DNA of 33,791 bases from a virus: the IMG/VR virus record IMGVR_UViG_3300045988_069152; one strand, given 5' to 3'. Each line of letters starts with the position of its first letter. Positions within the stretch are counted from its first letter, which is position 1. The notes under the pieces are model-generated. The model made no database searches. It saw only the letters and a list, made by a program, of their open reading frames with translations, and was not told the origin of the DNA. The position numbers were made by a program, and so were the translations under genes. Positions 1 through 33,791 of this stretch are shown here, in pieces.

Positions 1-2042
1 GCGTTTTTAATATCCTGCCATCTGGCACCAAACCAGGAACCGATTGCCGCAAATACGCCCGTCACGCCGTTATAGGCTTCTGTAAATCGGTCAATGAACC
101 ACTGACCCACGCCCTGGAATATGGCAACTATTCCGTTCCACAAATTTTGAAAAAACTGCTTTATATTTGCCACAAAATTGTCCACAAATTCCCGGAACGC
201 TCCGCAATTATCGTAAAGAAGTTTGAACGCTCCGGCAAACGGGTTTACGATAAGCAATAAAAGCCCCTGCCAGTTATTTTTTATAAAATCAACCACGGTG
301 TTAAAAGCGTTTGGCAATGTTTCCGTGAAAAATGTCTTTATTCCGTCCCATGCGGCAAAAAACGCTTTTTTAATGGATGCCCAAATTGCATTTACTCCAT
401 TTCTGAACCACTCGCACTTGTTATAAAGTGTTACCAGGATGGCTATAACCGCCGTAATTGCCGTTACAATCAATATGATAGGGTTTGCTGCCAACACTGC
501 ATGAAACGCCGTAAATGCCGCCTTTGCTGCTTTGACGGCCGGGCCAATCTTCCCCACCACGGTTATGATGTTTGAAATGCCCGTGGCTACCTTTCCAAAA
601 ATGATAAGTGCCGGACCGATTGCCGCCACTACGGCTGCAATCTTAATAATGGTTTCTTTCTGGCTCTGGCTTAAATTCTTAAACCACTGTGTAAACTCTT
701 TTACCTTTCCCACCACTTTTGTAATGGTTGGCTGCAACGAACCTAAAAGAGTGGTGCCCAGGTCTGCCGCTGCCAATTTCAAATTATTGGCGGCCACCTT
801 TGCTTCATCCCACGGGTCTTGTGTGGCATTAAATGTGTCCTCAACTACGGTTCCGTAATCTTCCATGGATGATGAAAGGCTTTCAAGGTCAATTCTTCCC
901 TCACGGATGGCGTTTGACATTTCCGCCGCCCCTTTGGTTCCAAATACTTCCTGGGCAATGCTTAACGCTTCCGTTTCACTGGATGCGTTTTTGATTTTAT
1001 CAATGGTAAGGCCCAGGGCTTCGTCAACGCTCTTGCCCTCGTCCGTGTATACCTTTATGGATTTTCTCAACCCTGCCATGGCCGTATCTGCATTTACGCC
1101 GTTTGCTTCAAACTGTGCCAAAAGGTTTGTGGACTGCACCAGGTTAAGCCCCATTTCTTTAAATGTGGCCCCATTCTTCTGCAAACTGTCCATAAGCGTG
1201 TCCACACTTATGCCCGTTTCCTGGCCTTTCTTCGTGAGAAGTCCCAGGACGTTGCCCGTTTCGGATGCGTCTATGTTGTATTGCTCCATGATTTTGTCCG
1301 TTTTACCAATGGAGTTGTTTAAATCCGTGTCATTGATATTGGCAAATTCTATAAACTGCTTTGAAAGGTCTTTGAGGGTGTCCCCGGTGGCTCCAAAACG
1401 GGTGTTGATTTCTCCAACGGCCGTTCCGGCATCCTGCATTTCAATAGGCATTTCCGTAAAAAGGTCATCCGCAATTCCGTTCAGTTCTTCCAGGGCTTCC
1501 CCGGTGGCTCCCGTCTTTGTAATGATAGTATCGTAACCATCATCCAATTCCATTGCCGCCGCTACCCCGGCACCACCTAAAGCCGTAACCCCGGCGGTCA
1601 CTGGCAAAAGTTTATTGCCAATGCCCGTGGCTTTGCCACCTACTTTTCCAAATGCTTCCCCCACTTTTTCCAGGGAAATATTGCTTTTCCCGGCTTCCTC
1701 TTCTAATTTCTTCAAAGAAAGTTCCGTGGCTTCAATCTCTCTTTTGATAGCCCGGTATTGTTCCTCTGAAACTTCGCCTTTTTTAAACTGTTCTTCCACC
1801 TGGGCTTCCGCCGTTTTGAGAACGTCCAACTTTTCCTTGGTTTCTCCCACGGCTTTTGTAAGTAACTGCTGCTTTTGTGCCAGGGCTTCGGTATTCTTGG
1901 GGTCTAATTTCAGCAGTTTTTCCACTTCTCTAAGTTCTGCCTGGGTGCTTTTCACGTTTTTATTTACGCCGCCCAGGGCCTTGTCAAGTTTCGTGGTATC
2001 GCCGCCAATTTCAATGGTTATACCCTTTATATTGTTAGCCAT
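1..2042 (-). CDS. Tail tape measure protein, N-terminal part (ATG at 2042; open through position 1; continues at 33791..32830 if the ends are joined)
   Basis: Absent from the ORF track because it has no stop inside the window. My translation from 2042 reads MANNIKGITIEIGGDTTKLDKALGGVNKNVKSTQAELREVEKLLKLDPKN..., a coiled-coil TP901-type TMP start. A hydrophobic block (AAVVAAIGPALIIFGKV) and W/F-periodic repeats follow. Plus-strand ORFs 223..2049 are its antisense shadows. It lies directly after the G/T chaperone genes. Confidence 0.85.
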   Translation of the reverse strand, partial: MANNIKGITIEIGGDTTKLDKALGGVNKNVKSTQAELREVEKLLKLDPKNTEALAQKQQLLTKAVGETKEKLDVLKTAEAQVEEQFKKGEVSEEQYRAIKREIEATELSLKKLEEEAGKSNISLEKVGEAFGKVGGKATGIGNKLLPVTAGVTALGGAGVAAAMELDDGYDTIITKTGATGEALEELNGIADDLFTEMPIEMQDAGTAVGEINTRFGATGDTLKDLSKQFIEFANINDTDLNNSIGKTDKIMEQYNIDASETGNVLGLLTKKGQETGISVDTLMDSLQKNGATFKEMGLNLVQSTNLLAQFEANGVNADTAMAGLRKSIKVYTDEGKSVDEALGLTIDKIKNASSETEALSIAQEVFGTKGAAEMSNAIREGRIDLESLSSSMEDYGTVVEDTFNATQDPWDEAKVAANNLKLAAADLGTTLLGSLQPTITKVVGKVKEFTQWFKNLSQSQKETIIKIAAVVAAIGPALIIFGKVATGISNIITVVGKIGPAVKAAKAAFTAFHAVLAANPIILIVTAITAVIAILVTLYNKCEWFRNGVNAIWASIKKAFFAAWDGIKTFFTETLPNAFNTVVDFIKNNWQGLLLLIVNPFAGAFKLLYDNCGAFREFVDNFVANIKQFFQNLWNGIVAIFQGVGQWFIDRFTEAYNGVTGVFAAIGSWFGARWQDIKN

Positions 2043-12487: not shown

Positions 12488-13411
12488 CTATTCTTCCTCA
12501 ATGTCATATTCCCGTTTACGCCGCTTGCAATCTTCCAACATGGCTTCCAAAATTCCCACTTCCTCGTCATTTAACCAGGTATAATATTTTTCAAGCATTT
12601 TTAAGGCGTGCAATTTCCTGGCATTGGCCTTTTCCTCTTCGGTTGTGTCGGTATCTGACACATTGGCTTCCCTGGTTTCATCTGCTAACGTCTTGCGGTG
12701 CTTTTTCTTTTCTTCGGTCATGGTCTTTATTTCCTCGGCACCCAGTCCGCCCTTATCCTCTGCCGCCTGGGCAATTTCTTTTTGGGTGTCCTTGTCCGCC
12801 TTGGCTGCTTCCACGGCCGCCGTAATTCCTAAATTACCTTTCTGGAATTGCTCTTTTACTTCCGGCGTGGCGTTATCGCTTATGGTGTTTAGGGTTCTGA
12901 TTTTCGGCACTGTTTCCCCCATTACTGCTGCCACATAGTCCCGGACCCTCTGCCCGGCTTCCAGAATAAGCAACCCCTCTTTTCTCGCCTGGGTCAATAC
13001 TTCTTTCCAGTCTGCCGCCTGGGTCATAAGGTCATAGTCTGTCATTTTGCGGTTAAAGGTATTACCTACCAAAAGGGAAATTCTAAATTCAATTTCCGTC
13101 ATGTCTTTATAACGGCACGGTATATTTTCAAATTCTGTTTTCCCCTCTGCCACCAACATTTTGATTGCCGCAAGTCTGCGGTGGCCGGAATGTAACCAAT
13201 ATTCCCCGTTTACCCGTCCTAATACAAGCGGCTCCTGCAATCCATCCATGGAAATGCCCGTTGCCAGGTCATCCAGTCCGTCCATACTGTACTTGTTGTG
13301 TTTTGTAACCACAATGTCCTGGTAATTCAATGTGATTTCCTGGTAATCTTTGTTTTTCCCTACTTCCGCCATGGTGGCGGCGTTCATAATGTCTAAAATA
13401 TTAAATCCCAT
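12488..13411 (-). CDS. parB: ParB-like partition / nuclease-domain protein
   Basis: The ParB N-terminal box GLQEPLVLGRVNGEYWLHSGHRRLAAIKML is present. ATG 13411 has the RBS AAAGGAG 9 nt upstream. It lies directly after parA. Confidence 0.8.
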   Translation of the reverse strand: MGFNILDIMNAATMAEVGKNKDYQEITLNYQDIVVTKHNKYSMDGLDDLATGISMDGLQEPLVLGRVNGEYWLHSGHRRLAAIKMLVAEGKTEFENIPCRYKDMTEIEFRISLLVGNTFNRKMTDYDLMTQAADWKEVLTQARKEGLLILEAGQRVRDYVAAVMGETVPKIRTLNTISDNATPEVKEQFQKGNLGITAAVEAAKADKDTQKEIAQAAEDKGGLGAEEIKTMTEEKKKHRKTLADETREANVSDTDTTEEEKANARKLHALKMLEKYYTWLNDEEVGILEAMLEDCKRRKREYDIEEE

Positions 13412-13415
13412 GCTT

Positions 13416-14219
13416 TCAACTCCTTTCCCCTGCTGCCAGGCGTCCAAATTTCTGCACATATTCCGCCACAAAGGCTTTATAGTCCTGGGCGGCTCCGCTG
13501 CGGATGCTATAATGCAACGGGGTTTGACGGTAAAACGTGGCATCCTTGGTCTTTTTGGAATGTCTGATTTTCTGCTTGAATACTGGGCAACTTCCCTTTG
13601 TCCTTAACCACATTTCCGCCGCTTCGCTTGTGTCCGTTCTCTCATAATCTGCAATAAGGCATCCGGCAAGCCTGGCCTTGGGGTTTAATGCCCGTATTTG
13701 GTTTATCTGCTCCACCAACTCTTCCAGGCCGTCCAGGGAATAGGCATCTAAGCACACGGGTATGATGATTTCATCCGTTGCCACCATTGCATTTATAACA
13801 TTCATCCCCAAATCCGGCGGATTGTCTATAATGCAATAATCATATTGCCCGGCAACCTCTTCCAGGGCGTGCTTGTATCGGTCATGTTGGGCACGGTTCT
13901 TTTCTGCCTTAATCTCTAATTCCGCCAACTCCATGAAGTAATTGCACGGTATAATGTCCAGGTTCTTTTCCCTGGTGTCCCGGATATTTCCGACAATCCG
14001 CCCGGTCTTAATTATCCGGCACGCTTCGGCTTCCTCTTCCCGGCGGTACGCTTCAAACAAACGGGATGCGTTGCCCTGCTTGTCATTGTCAAATAATAAA
14101 ACCCTGCTGCCAGGCCGCTTTCTCCGCTTGTCCCCCTCTGCCAATAACTCCGCCATAGAAACGGCGGTGGTGGTTTTGGCAACGCCACCCTTTAGGTTAA
14201 TGATTGAAATAACTTTCAT
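13416..14219 (-). CDS. parA: ParA/Soj-family partition ATPase
   Basis: A deviant Walker A (KGGVAKTTTAV) follows directly after MKVISIINL, and a Walker B (CIIDNPPD) is present. ATG 14219 has the RBS GAAAGGAGC; the longer track ORF starts at 14243. Confidence 0.9.
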   Translation of the reverse strand: MKVISIINLKGGVAKTTTAVSMAELLAEGDKRRKRPGSRVLLFDNDKQGNASRLFEAYRREEEAEACRIIKTGRIVGNIRDTREKNLDIIPCNYFMELAELEIKAEKNRAQHDRYKHALEEVAGQYDYCIIDNPPDLGMNVINAMVATDEIIIPVCLDAYSLDGLEELVEQINQIRALNPKARLAGCLIADYERTDTSEAAEMWLRTKGSCPVFKQKIRHSKKTKDATFYRQTPLHYSIRSGAAQDYKAFVAEYVQKFGRLAAGERS

Positions 14220-14239
14220 GTGTGTTATGCTCCTTTCGC

Positions 14240-15112
14240 TCAATTCCGCACCATACGGGCGTATATGTAAAATGCCGCATTGATACCGTTGTATTTAACC
14301 TCTGCATCCAGGTATCTAAATCCTGGGTAAGCCTTTTCCAACTGTTCTTTCAAAACTTCGTTATCCTTTGCCATGCGTTCCACTTTGCTTTTTTTGAATT
14401 TTGAATAACTGCGTGTAGGTTCCGGCGGCTTTTTAAGGTTTTTGGATGGACACCACCGTTTTGTCCCGTGTGGGTTCTGTGTTATGTAGGTTGCAAGGCC
14501 AGTAATCAGAAAATCGTCATCCGGCTTAATGCGGCGTGTGTTTGGACGGTCACATTTTCCCCATAATTCCTCTAACTCGTCACGGTCCACACCGTCCCCG
14601 GATAACAGAATGTGAAAATGGGGACGTTTGTACCCGTCAAAAGCCAGGATGTAAATATACTTGGCATTTTCAAGCCCTGCCTTTTTCCGGCGGCGGTTGA
14701 TGCGTTTAATAAAATTCGTTATGTCTTTCTTTGCCCGGTCCACATCATCCGGCAAACAGTCATCATTCCACCCAAACGTGGCCCAAATATCCCCTTTTCC
14801 AAAATTGATATTGGCAAGGCGTATTAAATACCGTCTTGCGTTTTTCTCGTTAAGGTTTTTCTGTGACGGCCTGGTTTCTCTTTTCTGTTTCGTCACTGGC
14901 ATATTGCTTTTATCTTTAAAGGACGGGTACACCTGGGCTTCTAATAGTGTGGTGCCGCTTTTGATGTTTGTTGACTTCGTGGTGGTAGTCCTATAAAGGC
15001 ACTCCACCTTTCCGTCTTTCATCAACCGTTCCAATTCCCATTCCTCTAAGTTCTCAATCTGTTTTTGGTATGCTTCCTCATAATCGTAGTCATCATAATG
15101 CCTTTTTCTCAT
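14240..15112 (-). CDS. rep: HUH-type rolling-circle replication initiator-like protein (putative Rep)
   Basis: Three motifs are seen: a motif-1-like IWATFGW, the HUH motif RPHFHILLSG, and a Tyr motif GLATYITQN. The order and spacing resemble pC194/phiX-type Rep proteins. This is motif-level recognition only. Confidence 0.55.
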   Translation of the reverse strand: MRKRHYDDYDYEEAYQKQIENLEEWELERLMKDGKVECLYRTTTTKSTNIKSGTTLLEAQVYPSFKDKSNMPVTKQKRETRPSQKNLNEKNARRYLIRLANINFGKGDIWATFGWNDDCLPDDVDRAKKDITNFIKRINRRRKKAGLENAKYIYILAFDGYKRPHFHILLSGDGVDRDELEELWGKCDRPNTRRIKPDDDFLITGLATYITQNPHGTKRWCPSKNLKKPPEPTRSYSKFKKSKVERMAKDNEVLKEQLEKAYPGFRYLDAEVKYNGINAAFYIYARMVRN

Positions 15113-18046: not shown

Positions 18047-18856
18047 TCAAATCTTGCCCTGCTGCATCCGCTCATAATAAAACATGTATTGCTGCATAAT
18101 TCCGGCGGTGCCTGGGTACTTATGAACCGGGAAATGTCCGTGGTAATGGTTTTCTTCTATTCTGGAAATCCATGTGTCCCGTGGAAACGCTTCTGTAAAA
18201 TGCAATCCGAAAAGGCAAATGCAATTTGCAACCTTGGGGCCTATTCCTAAAAATCCCGTTAAGGTCTTGTATGCTTCCTCACGGTCTGCGGCCGCTCCAG
18301 CATCTGTCCGGCCCTGGTGGTTCCTTGCCGCTTCAATCAGATATTCCGCCCGGTAATATGCCCCCAGTGCTTCCAATTCCTCTTTGGGTGCATTGGCTAT
18401 TGCTTCCGGGGTTGGAAATGTATAAACCAGGCTTCCGTTATACGGGATGCCCTGGCCGTATACTTGGCAAAGTCTTTCAATGGTTCCTTTTATCCTGGGG
18501 ATGTTATTTCTTTGGCTGATAATGAAAGACGCTATGGTTTCCCACGGGTCCTGCCGTAAAATGCGGATGCCCTGGGCGGTTTGTCCTGCTGCCATTAAAT
18601 ATTCATCCCTTGGGTCAATGCTCTTTATGATTTTTCCGTAATCTTCGGAAAGGTCAAAATACTGTTTCCAGGTATTTGTAAAATCCTCTTCGCTACAATC
18701 CAGGCGGAACGCACCGCCGCCCAACTGTGAAATGGTAACAACCTTGTCTTTATGTATAACCAAATAGGCGTTTTCCCTGGTTCTCTTCCAACGGAAGCAT
18801 TGGCCGGAATTGGCTATTTGGTTAAGGTCAAAATTTTGTATTTCCTTTAAAATCAT
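18047..18856 (-). CDS. ogg: OGG1-type 8-oxoguanine DNA glycosylase/AP lyase-like protein (HhH-GPD superfamily)
   Basis: Blocks align by eye to human OGG1. SGQCFRW matches [42 protein letters not shown] matches [48 protein letters not shown] matches GVGTKVADCICLM and retains the catalytic Lys. FPRDTW matches VPVDVH and retains the Asp. Confidence 0.85.
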   Translation of the reverse strand: [269 protein letters not shown]

Positions 18857-21639: not shown

Positions 21640-22674
21640 TTATGCCAGTCTCTTAACCTCTTCATCAAAGAGTTGGGCGGAAGTCCTAAAACTAAATATT
21701 CCCCTGGGATAGTTGTTAATCCAGTTTTCTATATATTCAATGTCCTTGTCCTGCTTTTCGTCAAAATCTTCCCCTTTGGGAATATGGCGGCGGATAAGGC
21801 GGTTTGTATTCTCATTGGTTCCACGTTCCCAACTACTGTACGGATGGCAATAAAATAGGTAGGTTCTTTTTTCTCCCTCTCTAACGGCTGACCGCTCCAT
21901 GTCCTCATAGGCTGAAAACTCAACGCCATTGTCTACGGTAATGCTTCGGAATATCTTATAGAACATATCGCCCCATTTTCTTTCTAAACGGTCCAGGGCA
22001 TCCACCACGCTTTCCGCCCTTTGGTCTGCCAATTTAAAAATTATCTCATTCCTGGTTTTGCGTTCCGTTAATACAAGCAAACATGACTTTGTGGTGCCAC
22101 GCTTACCCTTTACCGTGTCCATTTCCCAATGGCCGAATATTTCCCGGTTATCCACTTCGTCCGGGCGGTTCTCTATGCTTTCCCCTATGGATGCCCTCTT
22201 TTGCACTTTCACTTTCTTATTGTGGTTTTTCCGTTTTCCTTTCACTGGCAAATCCTTATTGGTTAATTTAAGGAAAATACCATTATCAATATATCTGTAT
22301 AGGGTTCTTACGCTTATGGTTGTACTAAATTCAATGCCGCTTTCTGCTACTGCTATCAATGTGGCTTCCGGGCTATACTTATCATTCACAATTTTATCTT
22401 CTATGTATTCCGCAAGCGGTAAATCATTTCCAATTTTAATGTTCCGGCCCTTTCCTTGGGCGTTCCAATCATGGTTCTTTTGCCCCAAATCGCTGCTATA
22501 CCTTAATTCCTCGGTGTAATCGCTATTTCTATGGGTATACTCTCCCCGTTTCATTTCTCGGTAAATTGTGCTTCTATGCACATGCAAGTATTCCGCTATT
22601 TCTATAACCTTATGCCCGGAATTAAGCATAGTTTCCATCTTTATTCTATCGCTTTGGCTCAAATGTTTTCCCAT
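21640..22674 (-). CDS. IS30-family DDE transposase
   Basis: An N-terminal HTH plus a DDE region (GHWEMDTV, ITVDNGVEF, WERGTNENTNRLIRR). ATG 22674 has the RBS GGGGGGA; the track ORF extends to 22728. Confidence 0.9.
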   Translation of the reverse strand: MGKHLSQSDRIKMETMLNSGHKVIEIAEYLHVHRSTIYREMKRGEYTHRNSDYTEELRYSSDLGQKNHDWNAQGKGRNIKIGNDLPLAEYIEDKIVNDKYSPEATLIAVAESGIEFSTTISVRTLYRYIDNGIFLKLTNKDLPVKGKRKNHNKKVKVQKRASIGESIENRPDEVDNREIFGHWEMDTVKGKRGTTKSCLLVLTERKTRNEIIFKLADQRAESVVDALDRLERKWGDMFYKIFRSITVDNGVEFSAYEDMERSAVREGEKRTYLFYCHPYSSWERGTNENTNRLIRRHIPKGEDFDEKQDKDIEYIENWINNYPRGIFSFRTSAQLFDEEVKRLA

Positions 22675-22701
22675 GAAATCGTCCCCCCGTGGGTTGAAAA
22701 G

Positions 22702-22721
22702 GGCACGGAAACATCCGTGCC
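22702..22721 (-). terminator. Hairpin GGCACGGA-tgtt-TCCGTGCC followed by CTTTTC on the minus strand (weak terminator or insulator ahead of the transposase gene)
   Basis: A perfect 8-bp stem with a 4-nt loop, between the 171-aa gene and the transposase RBS. Confidence 0.35.
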
Positions 22722-22754
22722 GCTCCAATCATCCCTTTATCTGTTTTTAGGTTG

Positions 22755-24482: not shown

Positions 24483-25766
24483 TTATCTCAATAACTGGTT
24501 TACTTTGTTCTGCACTTCCTGGTAATTGTACCCGGCGGCTTCCAGGCGGTTTTTACGCTCTTTGCCATTGCCCCATTTCCCGGCAATTACTTCCTTGGCT
24601 ACCTGGGCCACGGTCTTTGTGGGTTTGGTGGCTCCACCGCTCAAAAGTGCGTTTACCTGGTTCTGTACTTCCTGGTAGTTATACCCGGCGGCTTCCAGGC
24701 GGTTTTTACGGTCCGCACCATTGCCCCACTTTCCGGCAATTACTTCCTTGGCTACTGCCGCAACGGATTTTCCGCCGGACGGCTGCGGCGGTGCGGTAGT
24801 TTCCTTGTCATACTTCGGTACACCGTAGCCACGGATGTAACGGCCATTTACCGGGATTGTGCGGCGGCCAACGGCATTGTTTTTGTTGCCCTCAATAACA
24901 ACAATGTTTTCGCCGCTTACGCTCTCGACAATTCCCACATGGTCCGGCCACCCGGTATTGTCCCCGGCTCCACTGTCATCCCAGTCATAAAAAATCACAT
25001 CCCCAGGGGTAGGTGTTCTGCTATCGCTTTCCTGCCACTCTCCCAGGGCTTTGAATAATTCAATCATCTGGCCGCAACCACATTCTGTTGGAATGATGCC
25101 AGTTAAACCGCATTTGATAGCAACGGCGGAAACAAAGGTGGCACACCAAGCATCTGTATATTTTACCTTGTAACCCCTGGCAAGGGGTGTGTGGCCGTTG
25201 TATACGTCAATGATGCCCTTGTGGGTTCCGTCTGCTTCATTCCTGCCAATCCAGGCACGGGCCTGGGCTAATACTGCACTTGCTAATTTTGCCATGCTCT
25301 CTTCCCCCTTTACGTCATACTGCTGCAAATCGTACTGCGTAACAATCTGCATGGTATTTTCTACATACTTGCTACTTGTGGCGTACCCGTCCGCTTTGAT
25401 GGTTTCTAAGTACACCGCCGGGTCCTTGATACCCCGTAAATTCTGGTAGCGTTCTAACTGGATAAATTCAAAATATCCTTTCACGCCCTCTTCCATGGAT
25501 GCGTACACCCGGAAATTATCCGTAATTGGTGTGAGGGTTCCCGGTGTGTATTCTTCCATGGTCTTGAGGTTTACGCTTTTGCCTTTCCACTTTGTTCCAC
25601 ATTTAAGGCCAAAATAATTGTGGTACACGGCCGCCAGGCGGCTTTCTCCCCATCCGCTTTCAAGGATAGCCTGGGCAATAATGGGACTATGTACCGCAAT
25701 TCCGTAGGCGGAAGCGTATTTTTTTACATACCCGGCAATCTTTTTAATAAATTCCTGCTTGTCCAT
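24483..25766 (-). CDS. Endolysin: N-terminal glucosaminidase, central CHAP/NlpC-P60-like amidase/peptidase, two C-terminal Cpl-7 (CW_7)-like wall-binding repeats
   Basis: AQAILESGWGES...YNYFG matches the glucosaminidase family. WCATFVS ... DHVGIV gives a Cys/His papain-like domain. AKEVIAGKWGNG..RKNRLEAAGYNYQEVQN.VN.LL is repeated twice. Confidence 0.88.
   Translation of the reverse strand: MDKQEFIKKIAGYVKKYASAYGIAVHSPIIAQAILESGWGESRLAAVYHNYFGLKCGTKWKGKSVNLKTMEEYTPGTLTPITDNFRVYASMEEGVKGYFEFIQLERYQNLRGIKDPAVYLETIKADGYATSSKYVENTMQIVTQYDLQQYDVKGEESMAKLASAVLAQARAWIGRNEADGTHKGIIDVYNGHTPLARGYKVKYTDAWCATFVSAVAIKCGLTGIIPTECGCGQMIELFKALGEWQESDSRTPTPGDVIFYDWDDSGAGDNTGWPDHVGIVESVSGENIVVIEGNKNNAVGRRTIPVNGRYIRGYGVPKYDKETTAPPQPSGGKSVAAVAKEVIAGKWGNGADRKNRLEAAGYNYQEVQNQVNALLSGGATKPTKTVAQVAKEVIAGKWGNGKERKNRLEAAGYNYQEVQNKVNQLLR
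24498..24765 (-). repeat. Coding tandem repeat, period 153 nt (two CW_7-like units)
   Basis: 24498..24612 and 24651..24765 align nearly base for base. Confidence 0.85.
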
Positions 25767-26325: not shown

Positions 26326-27378
26326 TTATGCCGGAATTAAAATATTGCTTTCCGTCTGCTCCCACTCCCAAAACAGTAATTCATATTCTATGGACTTTGT
26401 AACGTGGTAGGTGTCGGCGTGGCCCATGTGTCCCAGGCGGCTTTCATATTTTCTTGTAAATGTTTCTTTGTCCAGTTCTCCGGCTTCCAAATGCTTCACA
26501 TCATTTTTCAGCCGCCGGACGGATGCCTTGCGGACTTTTCTATAATTTGGATGGTGGATATATCCGCAAAAATCAATCCCGTTTCCGGCGTAAAGAATGG
26601 TGCTTTTGGGATTTATCTGCAATGCCATTTCCTTTTCCAAAAATTCTTCTATTCGCTTAACCCATTCCTTTAACTGGTTAAGGTCCGGGGTTAAAATAAT
26701 AAAATCGTCCATGTATCGGATGTAATACGGGATGTGTAAAACGTGCTTTACGAATTTGTCCAGGCGGTTGCCGTATACATTGGCAAATAACTGGCTTGTG
26801 AGGTTCCCCACGGGGATGCCCACGCCGTCCGGCAATATCCCGTTCTTATCTATGATTTCATCCATGAGGATAAGGGCTTTCTTATCCCCTATGTACCGTC
26901 TGTTTTCGTCTTTTAATTTGTCATGTGGAATAGATGCAAAGTATTTGTGTATGTCCCCTTTATAGGCATAAAGCCGCAATCCCTCACGCTCCATAAGTTC
27001 ATACATCCATTGGTATAACTGGTTACTTGCGGCGTGCATCCCTTTCCCGTCCCGGCAAGCGTAAGAATGATAATAAAACCCCTGTTCAAATATCGGCCCT
27101 ATGGCGTTTACAATCATGTGCTGCACCACCCGGTCATAGAAAGGTAACGCCATAATCAACCTTTCTTTTGGTTCCCATACCTTAAAAACGGTATATTCTC
27201 CCTGGTGGTATGTGAGGTTTTCCGCTTCATCACATGCCCTTAAAAGGTTATCTTCCTTTGACATAGAAAAAGCCAATACCTCTTCACTGTACCGCTTGCA
27301 TTTTGCGGCCTGGTGGAATGAAGTATTGGCGTTGTCAAAGGTATACATTTTATCATGCAATCCTTTAACTGTTTTCAT
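26326..27378 (-). CDS. brt: DGR reverse transcriptase
   Basis: The RT motifs include YMDDFIIL (the YxDD box) and the DGR-typical PVGNLTSQLFANVY. There is no maturase or endonuclease tail. It is adjacent to TR and avd. I chose ATG 27378 over TTG 27393. Confidence 0.9.
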   Translation of the reverse strand: MKTVKGLHDKMYTFDNANTSFHQAAKCKRYSEEVLAFSMSKEDNLLRACDEAENLTYHQGEYTVFKVWEPKERLIMALPFYDRVVQHMIVNAIGPIFEQGFYYHSYACRDGKGMHAASNQLYQWMYELMEREGLRLYAYKGDIHKYFASIPHDKLKDENRRYIGDKKALILMDEIIDKNGILPDGVGIPVGNLTSQLFANVYGNRLDKFVKHVLHIPYYIRYMDDFIILTPDLNQLKEWVKRIEEFLEKEMALQINPKSTILYAGNGIDFCGYIHHPNYRKVRKASVRRLKNDVKHLEAGELDKETFTRKYESRLGHMGHADTYHVTKSIEYELLFWEWEQTESNILIPA

Positions 27379-27540
27379 GTTGTGCCCTACCAATTTTCAA
27401 ATATTCTTTTACTAAAAGGCGGTGCCTTTGTTATTTTGTCCTGGTGTGCCCAGGAACGGGAAAACCGTCTGACTTATCAAAAATGTTAGATAAATCTTTG
27501 CCAGTAACCCATAGGTTTCTGTGTCTGAAAATGCTGATTA

Positions 27541-27668
27541 GTCACAGACGCACCACACGCCAATGTTCGTGTTCACGTTCCACGGGTAGTTGTTGCAATT
27601 GACGGCCCGTGAGCCGCAATACACGCCGTTGTTCCAATTGCCGCCGCCAATGAGGGCGTGCAAGCCAG
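27541..27668 (-). repeat. DGR template repeat (TR), 128 nt
   Basis: It aligns without gaps to 28162..28289 with 114 of 128 positions identical. The minus strand is rich in AAC/AAT codons. Confidence 0.9.
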
Positions 27669-27711
27669 GAACGGCCTGGTGCGAATTAACAGTTTCCCCA
27701 AATCTTATTTA

Positions 27712-28110
27712 TTATTTCCATTTTCCATCTTTCACGGCTTCAATAACGCCGCCCATTATTTTTCCGATTTCTGCCAGGTGTCGGCTTGCCACCTCATAGC
27801 GGTGTTTGCTCATGGCTTTATATTCCAGGTCATAAGACAGCCGTATAAGCATTTTAATAAACTGCAATTCCACATCCGCATTATAAATGTGGCTTTTCGT
27901 TCCGGTCTTTCTGAAACGGATAACGCTTTTTGACATTTCAAATATGGATGTTTTAATTTGGGTCTGTAATGCAAATTTCTCAAACTTCGGAAATTGTGCC
28001 AACACTGGATAGATGTATTTTAGAAAATCATAAATTTTCTGGTATAGCACCATACTTTCCATGTATGGGTCTATTGGTTTTGTATTTGTATTCTGTTTAT
28101 TTTCTGCCAT
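27712..28110 (-). CDS. avd: Avd, DGR accessory variability determinant (four-helix-bundle protein)
   Basis: A 132-aa basic helical protein located between target and TR, as in the mtd-avd-TR-brt cassette of Bordetella phage BPP-1. Confidence 0.8.
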   Translation of the reverse strand: MAENKQNTNTKPIDPYMESMVLYQKIYDFLKYIYPVLAQFPKFEKFALQTQIKTSIFEMSKSVIRFRKTGTKSHIYNADVELQFIKMLIRLSYDLEYKAMSKHRYEVASRHLAEIGKIMGGVIEAVKDGKWK

Positions 28111-28125
28111 GTTCTTCCCTCATAG

Positions 28126-28145
28126 GGGTGGGCTTTCGCCCACCC
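28126..28145 (-). promoter_or_regulatory. GC-rich hairpin GGGTGGGC-GAAA-GCCCACCC just 3' of the VR/target stop (DGR target-recognition hairpin candidate)
   Basis: A perfect 8-bp stem with a 4-nt loop, starting 7 nt after the target stop codon on the minus strand. Confidence 0.6.
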
Positions 28146-28152
28146 AAACAGA

Positions 28153-29253
28153 TTACAGACTGTCACAGACGCACCACACGCCAACGCTCGTGCCCACGCT
28201 CCACGGGTAGCTGCTGCACCTGACGGCCCGTGAGCCGCAATACACGCCGTTGCCCCAACCGCCGCCGCCAATGAGGGCGCGCAAGCCAGTGCTTGAATAC
28301 ATCCACGCTTGACCGTAACCGCCGCCAAATACGTCATACCATGCACCACTGGAAGCCGTGGGGTCATGTATCAACTCATTTAACCATTTCCAAACATTTC
28401 CCACCAGGTCGCAAATATTAAAACTGCTTACGGCGTTTGCAATCTTTCCAACGGCCGTTCTTGCGGTGTTGGTTTTTGCCGTCCATCCGTTGGTATTGGA
28501 ATTGTCAAGGCCCTGGGGGCTTCCGTCTGCTGCCACGGTAAATTCCATATAGTTCGGCAATCTCTTTCCTACACGTCTTGCACGTTCCCCGGCAATATAC
28601 CAGTTAAGGCCCTCGGTTCCCGTAATTGGTGTGGCGTTATAAACGGACTGCAAACCATTGGCCCCGTCATTACTGGAGAGGTAAATATCTCCCCATAATG
28701 CGTTCCCCAGGTATACCATGCCGGACGGGTCGCATTTAGGACGGTGCTTTGTGGTCCATACGGAATTTGGTAAAATATCCACACGGGTATTGCTTTCCCA
28801 TCCACTTCCCCTTACGGACCCGGAAGCATTGACCGGGCGGCCAAAATCATCCGTATTTCTTACACGTCCATAATGGAAACCGCCAATTTTACGGGTGTTT
28901 GTATCGTCCCATTCCTCGCCGTCCGGGAATGTGGAATTTAAGGAAATCAAATAAATTTCATCCTGGGCATCCGTTCCGGGGTCGCAAATGTAAATATAAT
29001 AATCGCTTCCGTGTGCAAAATCGGCTCCCTGGTCCAGGTTTGCCTTGGTAAGTTCGGTTTCTGCCGTCTTGAATACGGCGTTTTCTCCTACTGCAATCAC
29101 ACATCCGGCGGCAATCGTAACCGTGCCCGCGTCACTGTACTGGATGTACTCTTTTACCGGGGCCACAATGTCGGAAATGGCCGCCATTTTGGCAACTGTG
29201 ATTTTTGCCCGTTCATCCGTCATATTTTCGTCATAAACAAATAATCTACTCAT
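28153..29253 (-). CDS. mtd: DGR target protein: Mtd-like receptor-binding tail fibre protein with a C-terminal C-type-lectin/FGE-like fold carrying VR
   Basis: A 366-aa protein containing GKRLPNYMEF...DLVGNVWKWLNE (matching the GNVWEW signature of the FGE/CLec fold). The last 45 residues are encoded by VR. Confidence 0.85.
   Translation of the reverse strand: MSRLFVYDENMTDERAKITVAKMAAISDIVAPVKEYIQYSDAGTVTIAAGCVIAVGENAVFKTAETELTKANLDQGADFAHGSDYYIYICDPGTDAQDEIYLISLNSTFPDGEEWDDTNTRKIGGFHYGRVRNTDDFGRPVNASGSVRGSGWESNTRVDILPNSVWTTKHRPKCDPSGMVYLGNALWGDIYLSSNDGANGLQSVYNATPITGTEGLNWYIAGERARRVGKRLPNYMEFTVAADGSPQGLDNSNTNGWTAKTNTARTAVGKIANAVSSFNICDLVGNVWKWLNELIHDPTASSGAWYDVFGGGYGQAWMYSSTGLRALIGGGGWGNGVYCGSRAVRCSSYPWSVGTSVGVWCVCDSL
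28162..28289 (-). repeat. DGR variable repeat (VR), 128 nt
   Basis: Counterpart of TR. Thirteen differences fall at TR adenines and one at a TR thymine. Confidence 0.9.
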
Positions 29254-32829: not shown

Positions 32830-33791
32830 TTACCCCCTTTGCATTGCTAAAATCATGCTTCTTGTCTGTAATCTTGTTTGTCTTGCTACTTCATACGGGC
32901 TTAACGCCTTGGGGCTTGTAATGTTCACGTTCTGAACATATCCGCCACCGCCTTTTCCGGCGTTCTCCATGGCGTGGTTTTTTGCACTTCCCGTAAGTGG
33001 TGTAACAACGGCTTTTCCGTTTACCATGCTAAGAAGTTCCGGCCCGGCTTCTGCCACCATGGCCGTGCCCTCTCTAAGCACGCCGCCTTTTGCCAGTCTT
33101 GGCAATGACAATTCCCCTATTTTTCCCAGGGAAACGCCCGGTATTTCATTGATAATTCCAATTACACCGTTTATCATGCGGATAAATTTATTTACAACGC
33201 CCTCAATGGTAGCCAAACATGAGTTAATGGCAGATTTAAAGGCATCCCCTACGGCCGAACCGATTTTTACACCTACGTCAACGAAACATCCTTTAATTTT
33301 CTCCCACAAGCCGGAAAAGAAAGAAGTCACGTTGGCAAAGGCATTTTTAATATTGGTCCATGCGTTTTGAAACTGGGTGCCGAACCACTGCGGCACTGCT
33401 GCCAGGGCCGTTTTAATTTCCGTCCACCGGGCACCGAACCAAGAACCGATTGCCGCAAATACATTTGTCACATTGGTGTAGGCATTTGTGAACATAGTAA
33501 GGAACCACGTTGCCACCTGGGCCAGGGCGTTTTTAATATCCTGCCATCTGGCACCAAACCAGGAACCGATTGCCGCAAATATACGGGTTACGTTGTTGTA
33601 TGCGTTGGTAAACATGGTAAGAAACCACGTTGCCACCTGGGCCAGGGCGTTTTTAATATCCTGCCATCTTGCACCGAACCACTGGCCGATTGCTGCAAAT
33701 ACGTTTTTCACATTGGTGTAGGCATTTGTGAACATGGTAAGGAACCACGTTGCCACCTGGGCCAGGGCGTTTTTAATATCCTGCCATCTGG
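32830..33791 (-). CDS. Tail tape measure protein, C-terminal part (open at the right window edge; the track start at 33756 is an internal Met)
   Basis: It contains 40-aa tandem repeats (WFGARWQDIKNALAQVATWFLTMFTNAYTNV..FAAIG). The frame is continuous with 1..2042 if position 1 is equated with 33767. Confidence 0.85.
   Translation of the reverse strand, partial: RWQDIKNALAQVATWFLTMFTNAYTNVKNVFAAIGQWFGARWQDIKNALAQVATWFLTMFTNAYNNVTRIFAAIGSWFGARWQDIKNALAQVATWFLTMFTNAYTNVTNVFAAIGSWFGARWTEIKTALAAVPQWFGTQFQNAWTNIKNAFANVTSFFSGLWEKIKGCFVDVGVKIGSAVGDAFKSAINSCLATIEGVVNKFIRMINGVIGIINEIPGVSLGKIGELSLPRLAKGGVLREGTAMVAEAGPELLSMVNGKAVVTPLTGSAKNHAMENAGKGGGGYVQNVNITSPKALSPYEVARQTRLQTRSMILAMQRG
33380..33791 (-). 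repeat. Coding tandem repeat, period 120 nt, about 3.5 copies here, continuing into 1..~110
   Basis: The 25-mer GCGTTTTTAATATCCTGCCATCTGG recurs at 33527, 33647, 33767 and 1. A diverged copy lies near 33407. Confidence 0.85.

Follow-up and report, generated by a model that had tools for sequence, protein, structure and literature searches.

A BPP-1-type diversity-generating retroelement with an Mtd-like target gene in the genome of a predicted Lachnospiraceae siphovirus

The sequence analysed here is the IMG/VR virus record IMGVR_UViG_3300045988_069152 (33,791 nt in total, hereafter the window), which carries on the minus strand, at positions 26,326-29,253, a cassette with the components of a diversity-generating retroelement (DGR). 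The minus-strand order is: target gene, variable repeat (VR), GC hairpin, avd, template repeat (TR), spacer and reverse transcriptase (RT) gene, and the same gene order is found in the Bordetella phage BPP-1 (AY029185, mtd-avd-TR-brt). A first-pass annotation, made from the sequence alone, had already placed the target, VR, hairpin, avd, TR and RT, and every coordinate that was checked proved correct, with the spacer measuring 162 nt instead of the "about 160" given there. Its assignment of the cassette to the BPP-1-type architecture, i.e. to a known class, is borne out by the presence of every component, by their order and by homology. The features of the cassette are as follows:

28153-29253, minus strand: target gene, encoding a predicted Mtd-like receptor-binding tail protein of 366 aa (Pfam, PHROG and PDB matches)
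28162-28289, minus strand: VR, 128 nt, coding for target residues 322-364 of 366, with 14 differences from TR
28146-28161, minus strand: VR-specific 3' flank, 16 nt between the end of the TR/VR homology and the hairpin, comprising the last two codons, the stop codon and a linker
28126-28145, minus strand: GC-rich hairpin/cruciform, GGGTGGGC-GAAA-GCCCACCC, with an 8-bp stem and a GAAA loop, 16 nt past VR
27712-28110, minus strand: avd, accessory variability determinant, 132 aa (NCBIfam, Pfam and PHROG matches)
27541-27668, minus strand: TR, non-coding, 128 nt with 26 adenines, between avd and the RT gene
27379-27540, minus strand: spacer (Sp), 162 nt between TR and the RT gene, with blocks conserved in relatives
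27465-27474, minus strand: invariant spacer block AGTCAGACGG, holding the predicted priming adenosine A27470
26326-27378, minus strand: DGR reverse transcriptase gene, 350 aa (Pfam RVT_1, 9e-18; PHROG 1423, 4e-111)

A repeat search of the window reported a single 128-nt direct repeat (27541-27668/28162-28289), ungapped and with 89% identity. On the minus strand, 13 of the 14 TR/VR mismatches are located at TR adenines, and the probability of finding at least 13 of 14 differences on A by chance, with 26 A among the 128 nt of TR, is 1.1e-8. The same ungapped length, the same numbers of differences and the same number of TR adenines had been obtained in the first-pass annotation. All 13 adenine mismatches are A->G, while the sole mismatch at another base is T->G (codon AAT->AGG; TR 27598/VR 28219). 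At the codon level, AAC and AAT in TR correspond to GGC, AGC, GGT and AGG in VR, exactly as listed before, and two further shifts are CAC->CGC and ATT->GTT. Both repeats terminate with an identical, GC-rich 21-mer, GGCGTGTGGTGCGTCTGTGAC; this 3' identity had also been recognised earlier, and the 21-mer is present in exactly two copies in the window, with 0 expected by chance. The TR/VR similarity breaks off abruptly past the codon GAC, and a stop codon is placed directly after TR. An adenine-tolerant mismatch scan of the whole genome on both strands, a check that the first-pass annotation had suggested, recovered this pair as the only one in the genome, with no second or remote VR. A short inverted repeat, CCAGG-CCGTT-CCTGG (27667-27681, minus strand), overlaps the first bases (5' edge) of TR.

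The start codon of the RT (ATG 27378) is conserved, and the protein carries the motifs VGNLTSQ (26791-26811, with GNLTSQ at 26791-26808) and YMDD (26704-26715), so that both motifs named in the first-pass annotation could be located. The form [I/V/L]GxxxSQ is characteristic of DGRs, while the motif reads QGxxxSP in most other RTs (PMC7826257). The top match among solved structures is bRT of BPP-1 (8ub7, E 2e-47), followed by a group II intron RT (7e-15). Many weak RT-domain matches to Drt/UG, retron and group II models were returned by PADLOC and NCBIfam, and these could be read as a sign that the enzyme belongs to another system (group II intron, retron or Drt/UG defence RT) and that the repeat is a partial gene duplication. 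This explanation has a negligible probability, as all such matches are far under the curated NCBIfam cut-offs (TIGR04416 group II, 107.5 vs 300 bits; Drt3a, 62 vs 200; retron St85, 38.6 vs 235; Drt2, 37.5 vs 390), the matches of PADLOC to the RT are generic RT-domain matches only, bRT is the best structural match by a wide margin, the DGR-specific VGNLTSQ is present, and so are Avd, the adenine pattern of TR/VR and the hairpin. Partner features of retron, intron or Drt type were not observed, and the Rfam search of the window gave no family at or above its gathering score, group II intron and retron RNAs included. Judged by its sequence, the RT thus belongs to the DGR lineage. The product of avd exceeded the cut-off of the NCBIfam equivalog NF033474 DivGenRetAVD (100.9 bits vs 80) and matched Pfam bAvd (1.8e-28) and PHROG 3206 ('Avd protein of DGR'). 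The profile search of RT and Avd proposed in the first-pass annotation was therefore positive for Pfam RVT_1, PHROG 1423, NF033474 and bAvd alike.

The target protein matched the second domain of Mtd (Pfam mtd_2nd, 3.6e-32, 111.5 bits vs a cut-off of 24.6), its C-terminus matched the FGE-sulfatase/C-type lectin (CLec) family (Pfam, 1.2e-7, 32.1 bits vs a cut-off of 23.3), and the protein also hit PHROG 11262 (tail protein, 1.8e-72). Residues 43-366 align with six Mtd crystal-structure sequences (PDB 1yu3 and related entries, E 2.5e-18), and 112 of 329 aligned residues are identical in BPP-1 Mtd. Going by these matches, the target is an Mtd-like receptor-binding protein with a C-type-lectin-fold variable domain, and the target, RT and Avd are to be regarded as true homologues of BPP-1 Mtd, bRT and Avd. 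The gene closes a siphovirus tail module, in which it follows Dit, Tal/Sipho_Gp37 and two more proteins. It had been annotated at first as a tail fibre; a better name is an Mtd-like receptor-binding protein ending the siphovirus tail module.

On the alignment of the target with BPP-1 Mtd, codons with A at position 1 or 2 were marked in each TR. This comparison revealed that 11 of the 12 canonical variable residues of Mtd (344, 346, 347, 350, 357, 359, 360, 364, 366, 368 and 369) correspond to adenine-bearing TR codons in the window (target residues 332, 334, 335, 338, 345, 347, 348, 352, 354, 356 and 357, respectively). Since 11 of 12 variable positions coincide, the diversified surface is positionally conserved between the window phage and BPP-1.

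The first-pass annotation had expected that polymorphism of VR would be confined to the positions that are A in TR, and had proposed read mapping as a check. Contigs from other samples were used here in place of reads, and the outcome was favourable. At least 597 RT relatives are present in IMG/VR, of which 80 were fetched, and a metagenome scan with the 21-mer added 35 loci, many of them from the human gut. An identical 128-nt TR was found in five loci (the window, L004, L005, L084 and L176), all of whose VRs differ, and the TR of a further locus, L002, is one base off that of the window. In total, eight distinct VRs accompany the same TR or its one-base variant, the differences being placed almost only at TR-adenine columns, and the TR copy itself is constant at the adenine columns where the VRs vary. 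In the larger set of 90 distinct TR/VR pairs (36 distinct TRs), 1068 of 1134 mismatches (94%) fall on TR adenines, a share that ranges from 94 to 96% across 61-90 pairs. Of the adenines at codon positions 1 and 2, 41-51% have been substituted (90 pairs), and in BPP-1 adenine substitution amounts to about 50%, both in vitro and in vivo (PMC6182149, PMC7826257).

The comparison of the window with L002 (VR 2197-2324, TR 2818-2945) is the most informative. Outside VR, 3 of 2800 nt differ (0.11%), and within VR 13 of 128 nt differ (10.2%), 11 of these 13 at TR-adenine columns, i.e. the divergence rises approximately 100-fold exactly inside the 128-nt repeat. One of the other two differences is a T->C change that L002 carries at TR position 6 and, mirrored, in its own VR, a natural non-adenine marker that has passed from TR into VR. 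Mosaicism is frequent in phage receptor-binding genes and only a handful of assemblies was compared, so one could attribute the diversity of VR to recombination or selection among pre-existing receptor-binding-gene alleles, with the repeat and the RT playing no part in it. Such an origin is extremely improbable, because it predicts none of four patterns: (i) differences restricted to columns with A in the non-coding copy, (ii) a non-coding copy that never varies at adenine columns, (iii) a jump in divergence that coincides with the repeat and (iv) a non-A variant of TR copied into the VR of L002.

These patterns indicate, at the sequence level, that mutagenic retrohoming occurs and that the DGR was apparently active recently. 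A phage diverged by only 0.11% has 13 VR differences, so homing must postdate a very recent split. In two close relatives the contig breaks off exactly at VR or within it (L001/L081 at window position 28152, L003/L082 inside VR at window position 28255), a pattern expected when a sample holds mixed VRs. The cassette might still be a fossil, that is a DGR which looks intact but no longer works and whose VR differences date from an earlier active phase; the one non-adenine change in VR could in that case be post-homing drift. This is very unlikely in view of the late homing inferred from L002, the five loci in which an identical TR is accompanied each time by a different VR, the two contig breaks, and the intact state of the RT, Avd, TR, spacer motif and hairpin.

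In 15 relatives, the spacer shows conserved blocks as well as helices in which changes are compensatory. The block AGTCAGACGG is unchanged in 17 family members and corresponds to GGTCAGCCGG in the BPP-1 spacer, which is also given as GTCAGCCGGTT, with A at position 56. The pattern common to both spacers is GTCAGNCGGTT, and its A sits at BPP-1 Sp A56, i.e. at the mapped priming nucleotide, which pairs with TR U118, the first copied base being TR G117 (PMC6182149, PMC7826257). The reverse complement of AGUCA (27470-27474) in the window is exactly UGACU (27540-27544), composed of the final four TR bases and the first spacer base. By analogy with BPP-1, priming is predicted to occur from A27470 with G27545 as the first templated base, and the GC-rich 3' end of TR would therefore lie outside the mutagenised tract. 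The motif is located at spacer position 71 in the window vs 56 in BPP-1, and the TR base facing spacer U69 is A, which gives five consecutive Watson-Crick pairs, whereas a C/U mismatch occupies the third pair in BPP-1.

A covariance model of the spacer core was built on an RNAalifold structure, which for the core alignment had just one 5-bp helix. It matched the spacer of a DGR with 46% RT identity (L101, E 4e-4) and missed the spacers of BPP-1 and of the majority of distant DGRs, so deep RNA homology was not demonstrated by that route. The RNAalifold structure is incomplete, as it omitted a putative first hairpin of the spacer, in which, judged by eye, the variation is apparently compensatory.

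The GC-rich hairpin downstream of VR is predicted to fold as DNA with -10.6 kcal/mol (z = -4.2). Its stem varies yet stays paired in 13 relatives, with double compensatory changes at 5 of the 8 pairs. The BPP-1 counterpart, GCGGGGCC-GAAA-GGCCCCGC, is found at the same place, 17 nt past the equivalent GAC codon, and has been shown experimentally to be required for efficient homing, for which the structure counts and not the stem sequence (PMC3240598). The published consensus of DGR hairpins is a GC stem of 7-10 bp with a GRNA loop, placed 4-34 bp from VR (PMC3240598). Because its form, loop, stem length and distance from VR fit this consensus, the window hairpin is a counterpart of the BPP-1 element, and by analogy it would have a role in homing.

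The flank between VR and the hairpin has 16 nt, vs 17 nt from the equivalent GAC codon to the hairpin in BPP-1, and AGTCTGTAA within it is kept in close relatives. By analogy with BPP-1 (PMC3240598), this flank is presumed to be the remainder of a target-recognition sequence similar to the initiation of mutagenic homing (IMH) element. BPP-1 possesses a near-identical IMH/IMH* pair, whereas in the window the identical GC-rich 21-nt end is followed by wholly different sequences in VR and TR. The 21-nt end with its divergent flanks is nevertheless functionally consistent with IMH and IMH*.

The RT-Avd complex, the chemistry and site of priming, the function of the hairpin and the consequences for tropism are modelled on BPP-1, and the following course of events can be proposed. 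An RT-Avd complex would bind a transcript that runs from the 3' end of avd through TR and the 162-nt spacer, in which the spacer AGUCA would pair with UGACU at the TR 3' boundary. The spacer adenosine 27470 would then prime cDNA synthesis, with copying beginning at TR G27545, and the RT would be faithful on TR except opposite adenines, the outcome in this family being mostly A->G on the sense strand. In the Mtd-like gene, the cDNA would take the place of the 3'-terminal VR, guided by the GC-rich 21-nt end common to both repeats, by the flank specific to VR and by the GC hairpin that follows 16 nt downstream. This would generate combinatorial variation at approximately 12-16 residues of the ligand-binding face of the C-type lectin, and this may alter host-receptor specificity.

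Taken with its anatomy, the homology of its three proteins, the adenine-restricted TR/VR differences and the turnover of VR among near-identical phages, the cassette is almost certainly a functional BPP-1-type (mtd-avd-TR-brt) DGR on a temperate or episomal Lachnospiraceae siphovirus. Several points weigh against this interpretation. The activity is deduced from differences between assemblies of different samples, not from reads or experiment, and one difference in the window VR (T->G) is not at an adenine; a single non-adenine TR/VR difference is common, being found in 23% of DGRs (PMC5758913). No clear TR/VR homology is seen past GAC, unlike for the IMH* of BPP-1, and a directionality determinant was not found by homology. 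The AGUCA/UGACU pairing is invariant in the family, hence covariation neither backs nor contradicts it. The BPP-1 spacer was not detected with the covariance model of the spacer core, and the proposed RNA homology to BPP-1 rests on a motif of 10 specified bases, another short shared motif and a pairwise similarity between the spacers that is modest (z = 3.0, a score reached by 4 of 1000 shuffles).

The sizes of the components in the window and in BPP-1 are similar: target 366 vs 381 aa, VR/TR 128 vs 134 nt, Avd 132 vs 128 aa, spacer 162 vs 144 nt and RT 350 vs 328 aa. Apart from the gene order, the two systems share (i) homologous RT (34.6% identity), Avd and Mtd proteins, with 11 of 12 variable CLec positions alike, (ii) an 8-bp GC hairpin with a GAAA loop, 16-17 nt past a conserved GAC codon, (iii) the GTCAGNCGGTT spacer motif and (iv) the substitution of about half of the coding adenines. 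They differ in that the predicted host of the window phage is a Gram-positive gut member of the Lachnospiraceae and the virion module is of siphovirus type, whereas BPP-1 is a short-tailed Bordetella phage. Moreover, the window TR is without a recognisable IMH* continuation past GAC, and avd and TR are separated by 43 nt, whereas they abut in BPP-1.

The cassette also resembles the category 'a' DGRs of Wu et al. 2018 (PMC5758913) in the BPP-1-size target with an Mtd domain, the CLec1-type VR and the flanking phage genes. GC hairpins of such form are known in phage-related DGRs, including that of a Eubacterium rectale prophage, in a Lachnospiraceae genome (Guo et al. 2011, PMC3240598). The published class likewise has a constant VR 3' end, a GC hairpin with a GRNA loop and, now and then, one non-A difference (PMC5758913, PMC3240598), and no qualitative difference was noted between the window cassette and the published category 'a'/hairpin DGRs. 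The temperate phages of gut Bacillota Clostridium phage Saumur and Faecalibacterium phage FP_Lagaffe have an RT-Avd-target cassette beside the lysis module as well, but the identity of their RTs to that of the window is only 37-41%. The class of system (Mtd-domain target, CLec-type VR, phage-flanked: category 'a', PMC5758913) has thus already been described, and the cassette presents no new biology of its kind.

Its value is that of a clean, complete and apparently active BPP-1-type cassette in a phage lineage abundant in the human and mouse gut. The lineage is common in gut metagenomes (the above-mentioned IMG/VR relatives) and is represented by prophages in Petralouisia, Acetatifactor and Diplocloster. 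Its presence in cultured hosts (e.g. as prophages of Petralouisia muris) makes the mechanism worked out in Bordetella testable in gut Bacillota. The priming motif, the hairpin geometry and the positions of variable residues are kept between a phage of Bordetella and one of Bacillota, which favours the view that the BPP-1 mechanism is a general one.

The only mildly unusual aspect of the lineage is its G-skewed substitution spectrum. Adenine substitutions in the family are A->G in 61%, A->T in 23% and A->C in 16% of cases, and the share of G is 59% at codon position 1 and 71% at position 2. Over the 1068 adenine substitutions, G is put at 61-71%. Where an adenine is synonymous (third position of four-fold degenerate codons), G accounts for 8 of 10 substitutions; in this small sample, whose pairs are not fully independent, the excess is a hint of mutation and not selection as its source. 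Given 61% G, the 13 of 13 A->G changes in the window have a probability of about 0.002, and approximately 0.1 such loci would be expected among 61. A separate process behind this figure (e.g. deamination or editing) was considered and rejected, as relatives with the same TR also show A->T and A->C; because these same-TR relatives carry T and C, the window VR is an extreme of the family trend towards G and not the product of a different process.

The family is thus G-dominated, whereas BPP-1 is T-dominated: in vitro, the bases incorporated into BPP-1 cDNA opposite template A follow the order A > C > G, equivalent to T > G > C on the sense strand (PMC7826257), and VR1 of BPP-1 itself has 10 T, 4 G and 3 C. 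Nothing relevant to an A->G bias or to a repair-factor explanation was found in the literature searched. One tentative explanation, which we consider possible but on balance doubtful, is that the RT in this DGR lineage of Lachnospiraceae phages misincorporates with a spectrum intrinsically unlike that of bRT and prefers dCTP opposite template A. If so, A->G changes would predominate in the libraries produced, Asn, Ser, Gly and Asp would be the main products of AAY codons, and DGR RTs would differ in the shape, and not only the size, of the sequence space that they sample. A skew intrinsic to the RT would also be relevant to the engineering of DGRs for directed evolution.

A gene for an Ogg-like 8-oxoguanine DNA glycosylase (HhH-GPD; 18047-18856, minus strand, 269 aa) scored 168 bits, below the equivalog cut-off of 398, and is an unusual cargo for a small phage. 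A contribution of this glycosylase to the G skew would be pure speculation, and nothing ties it to the DGR.

The same 25 bp are present at both ends of the window (1-25 and 33767-33791), and the tape-measure open reading frame (ORF) spans the junction (from about 2045 down to 1, then from 33791 down to 32830, minus strand). This terminal repeat and the ORF crossing the junction show that the assembly is circular and the genome complete, with a length of about 33,766 bp (~33.77 kb). Upstream of the cassette, the minus-strand order is: tape measure, Dit, Tal (Sipho_Gp37), a 352-aa structural protein, a 162-aa protein and the target, and the RT gene is followed by the holin and then the endolysin genes. 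Other predicted products are the terminase, portal, protease, capsid and neck proteins, and a DNA methyltransferase.

The RTs most similar to that of the window in bacterial genomes (84-90% identity) are those of Lachnospiraceae (Petralouisia muris, Acetatifactor and several mouse-gut metagenome-assembled genomes), while remoter copies (56-59% identity) are present in Diplocloster and human-gut Lachnospiraceae. On the strength of these matches, the host is assigned to the Lachnospiraceae. A blastn search of deposited phage genomes gave no DNA match to the cassette, and the annotated relatives came from a protein search, in which the best RT identities among deposited phages were approximately 41-42% (Aeromonas phage phiARM81mr and Clostridium phage Saumur), compared with 34.6% for BPP-1.

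Genes for ParB-like, ParA-like and replication-initiator (Rep-like) proteins are located at 12488-15112 (minus strand), and no match to an integrase was obtained among the ORFs scanned, which together suggests an episomal (phage-plasmid-like) lifestyle. In contrast to this, related DGR RTs sit within large chromosomal contigs of Lachnospiraceae.

The endolysin (24483-25766, minus strand) is composed of glucosaminidase and CHAP domains and two CW_7 cell-wall-binding repeats. The CW_7 pair constitutes a 105-nt direct DNA repeat, with copies 153 nt apart and mismatches that are not adenine-specific. The C-terminal part of the tape-measure protein (~33300-33756, minus strand) contains three tandem units of approximately 46 aa (…FAAIG.WFGARWQDIKNALAQVATWFLTMFTNAYTNV…). 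A transposase of the IS30 family is encoded at 21640-22728 on the minus strand (NF033563, 234 bits vs a cut-off of 80).

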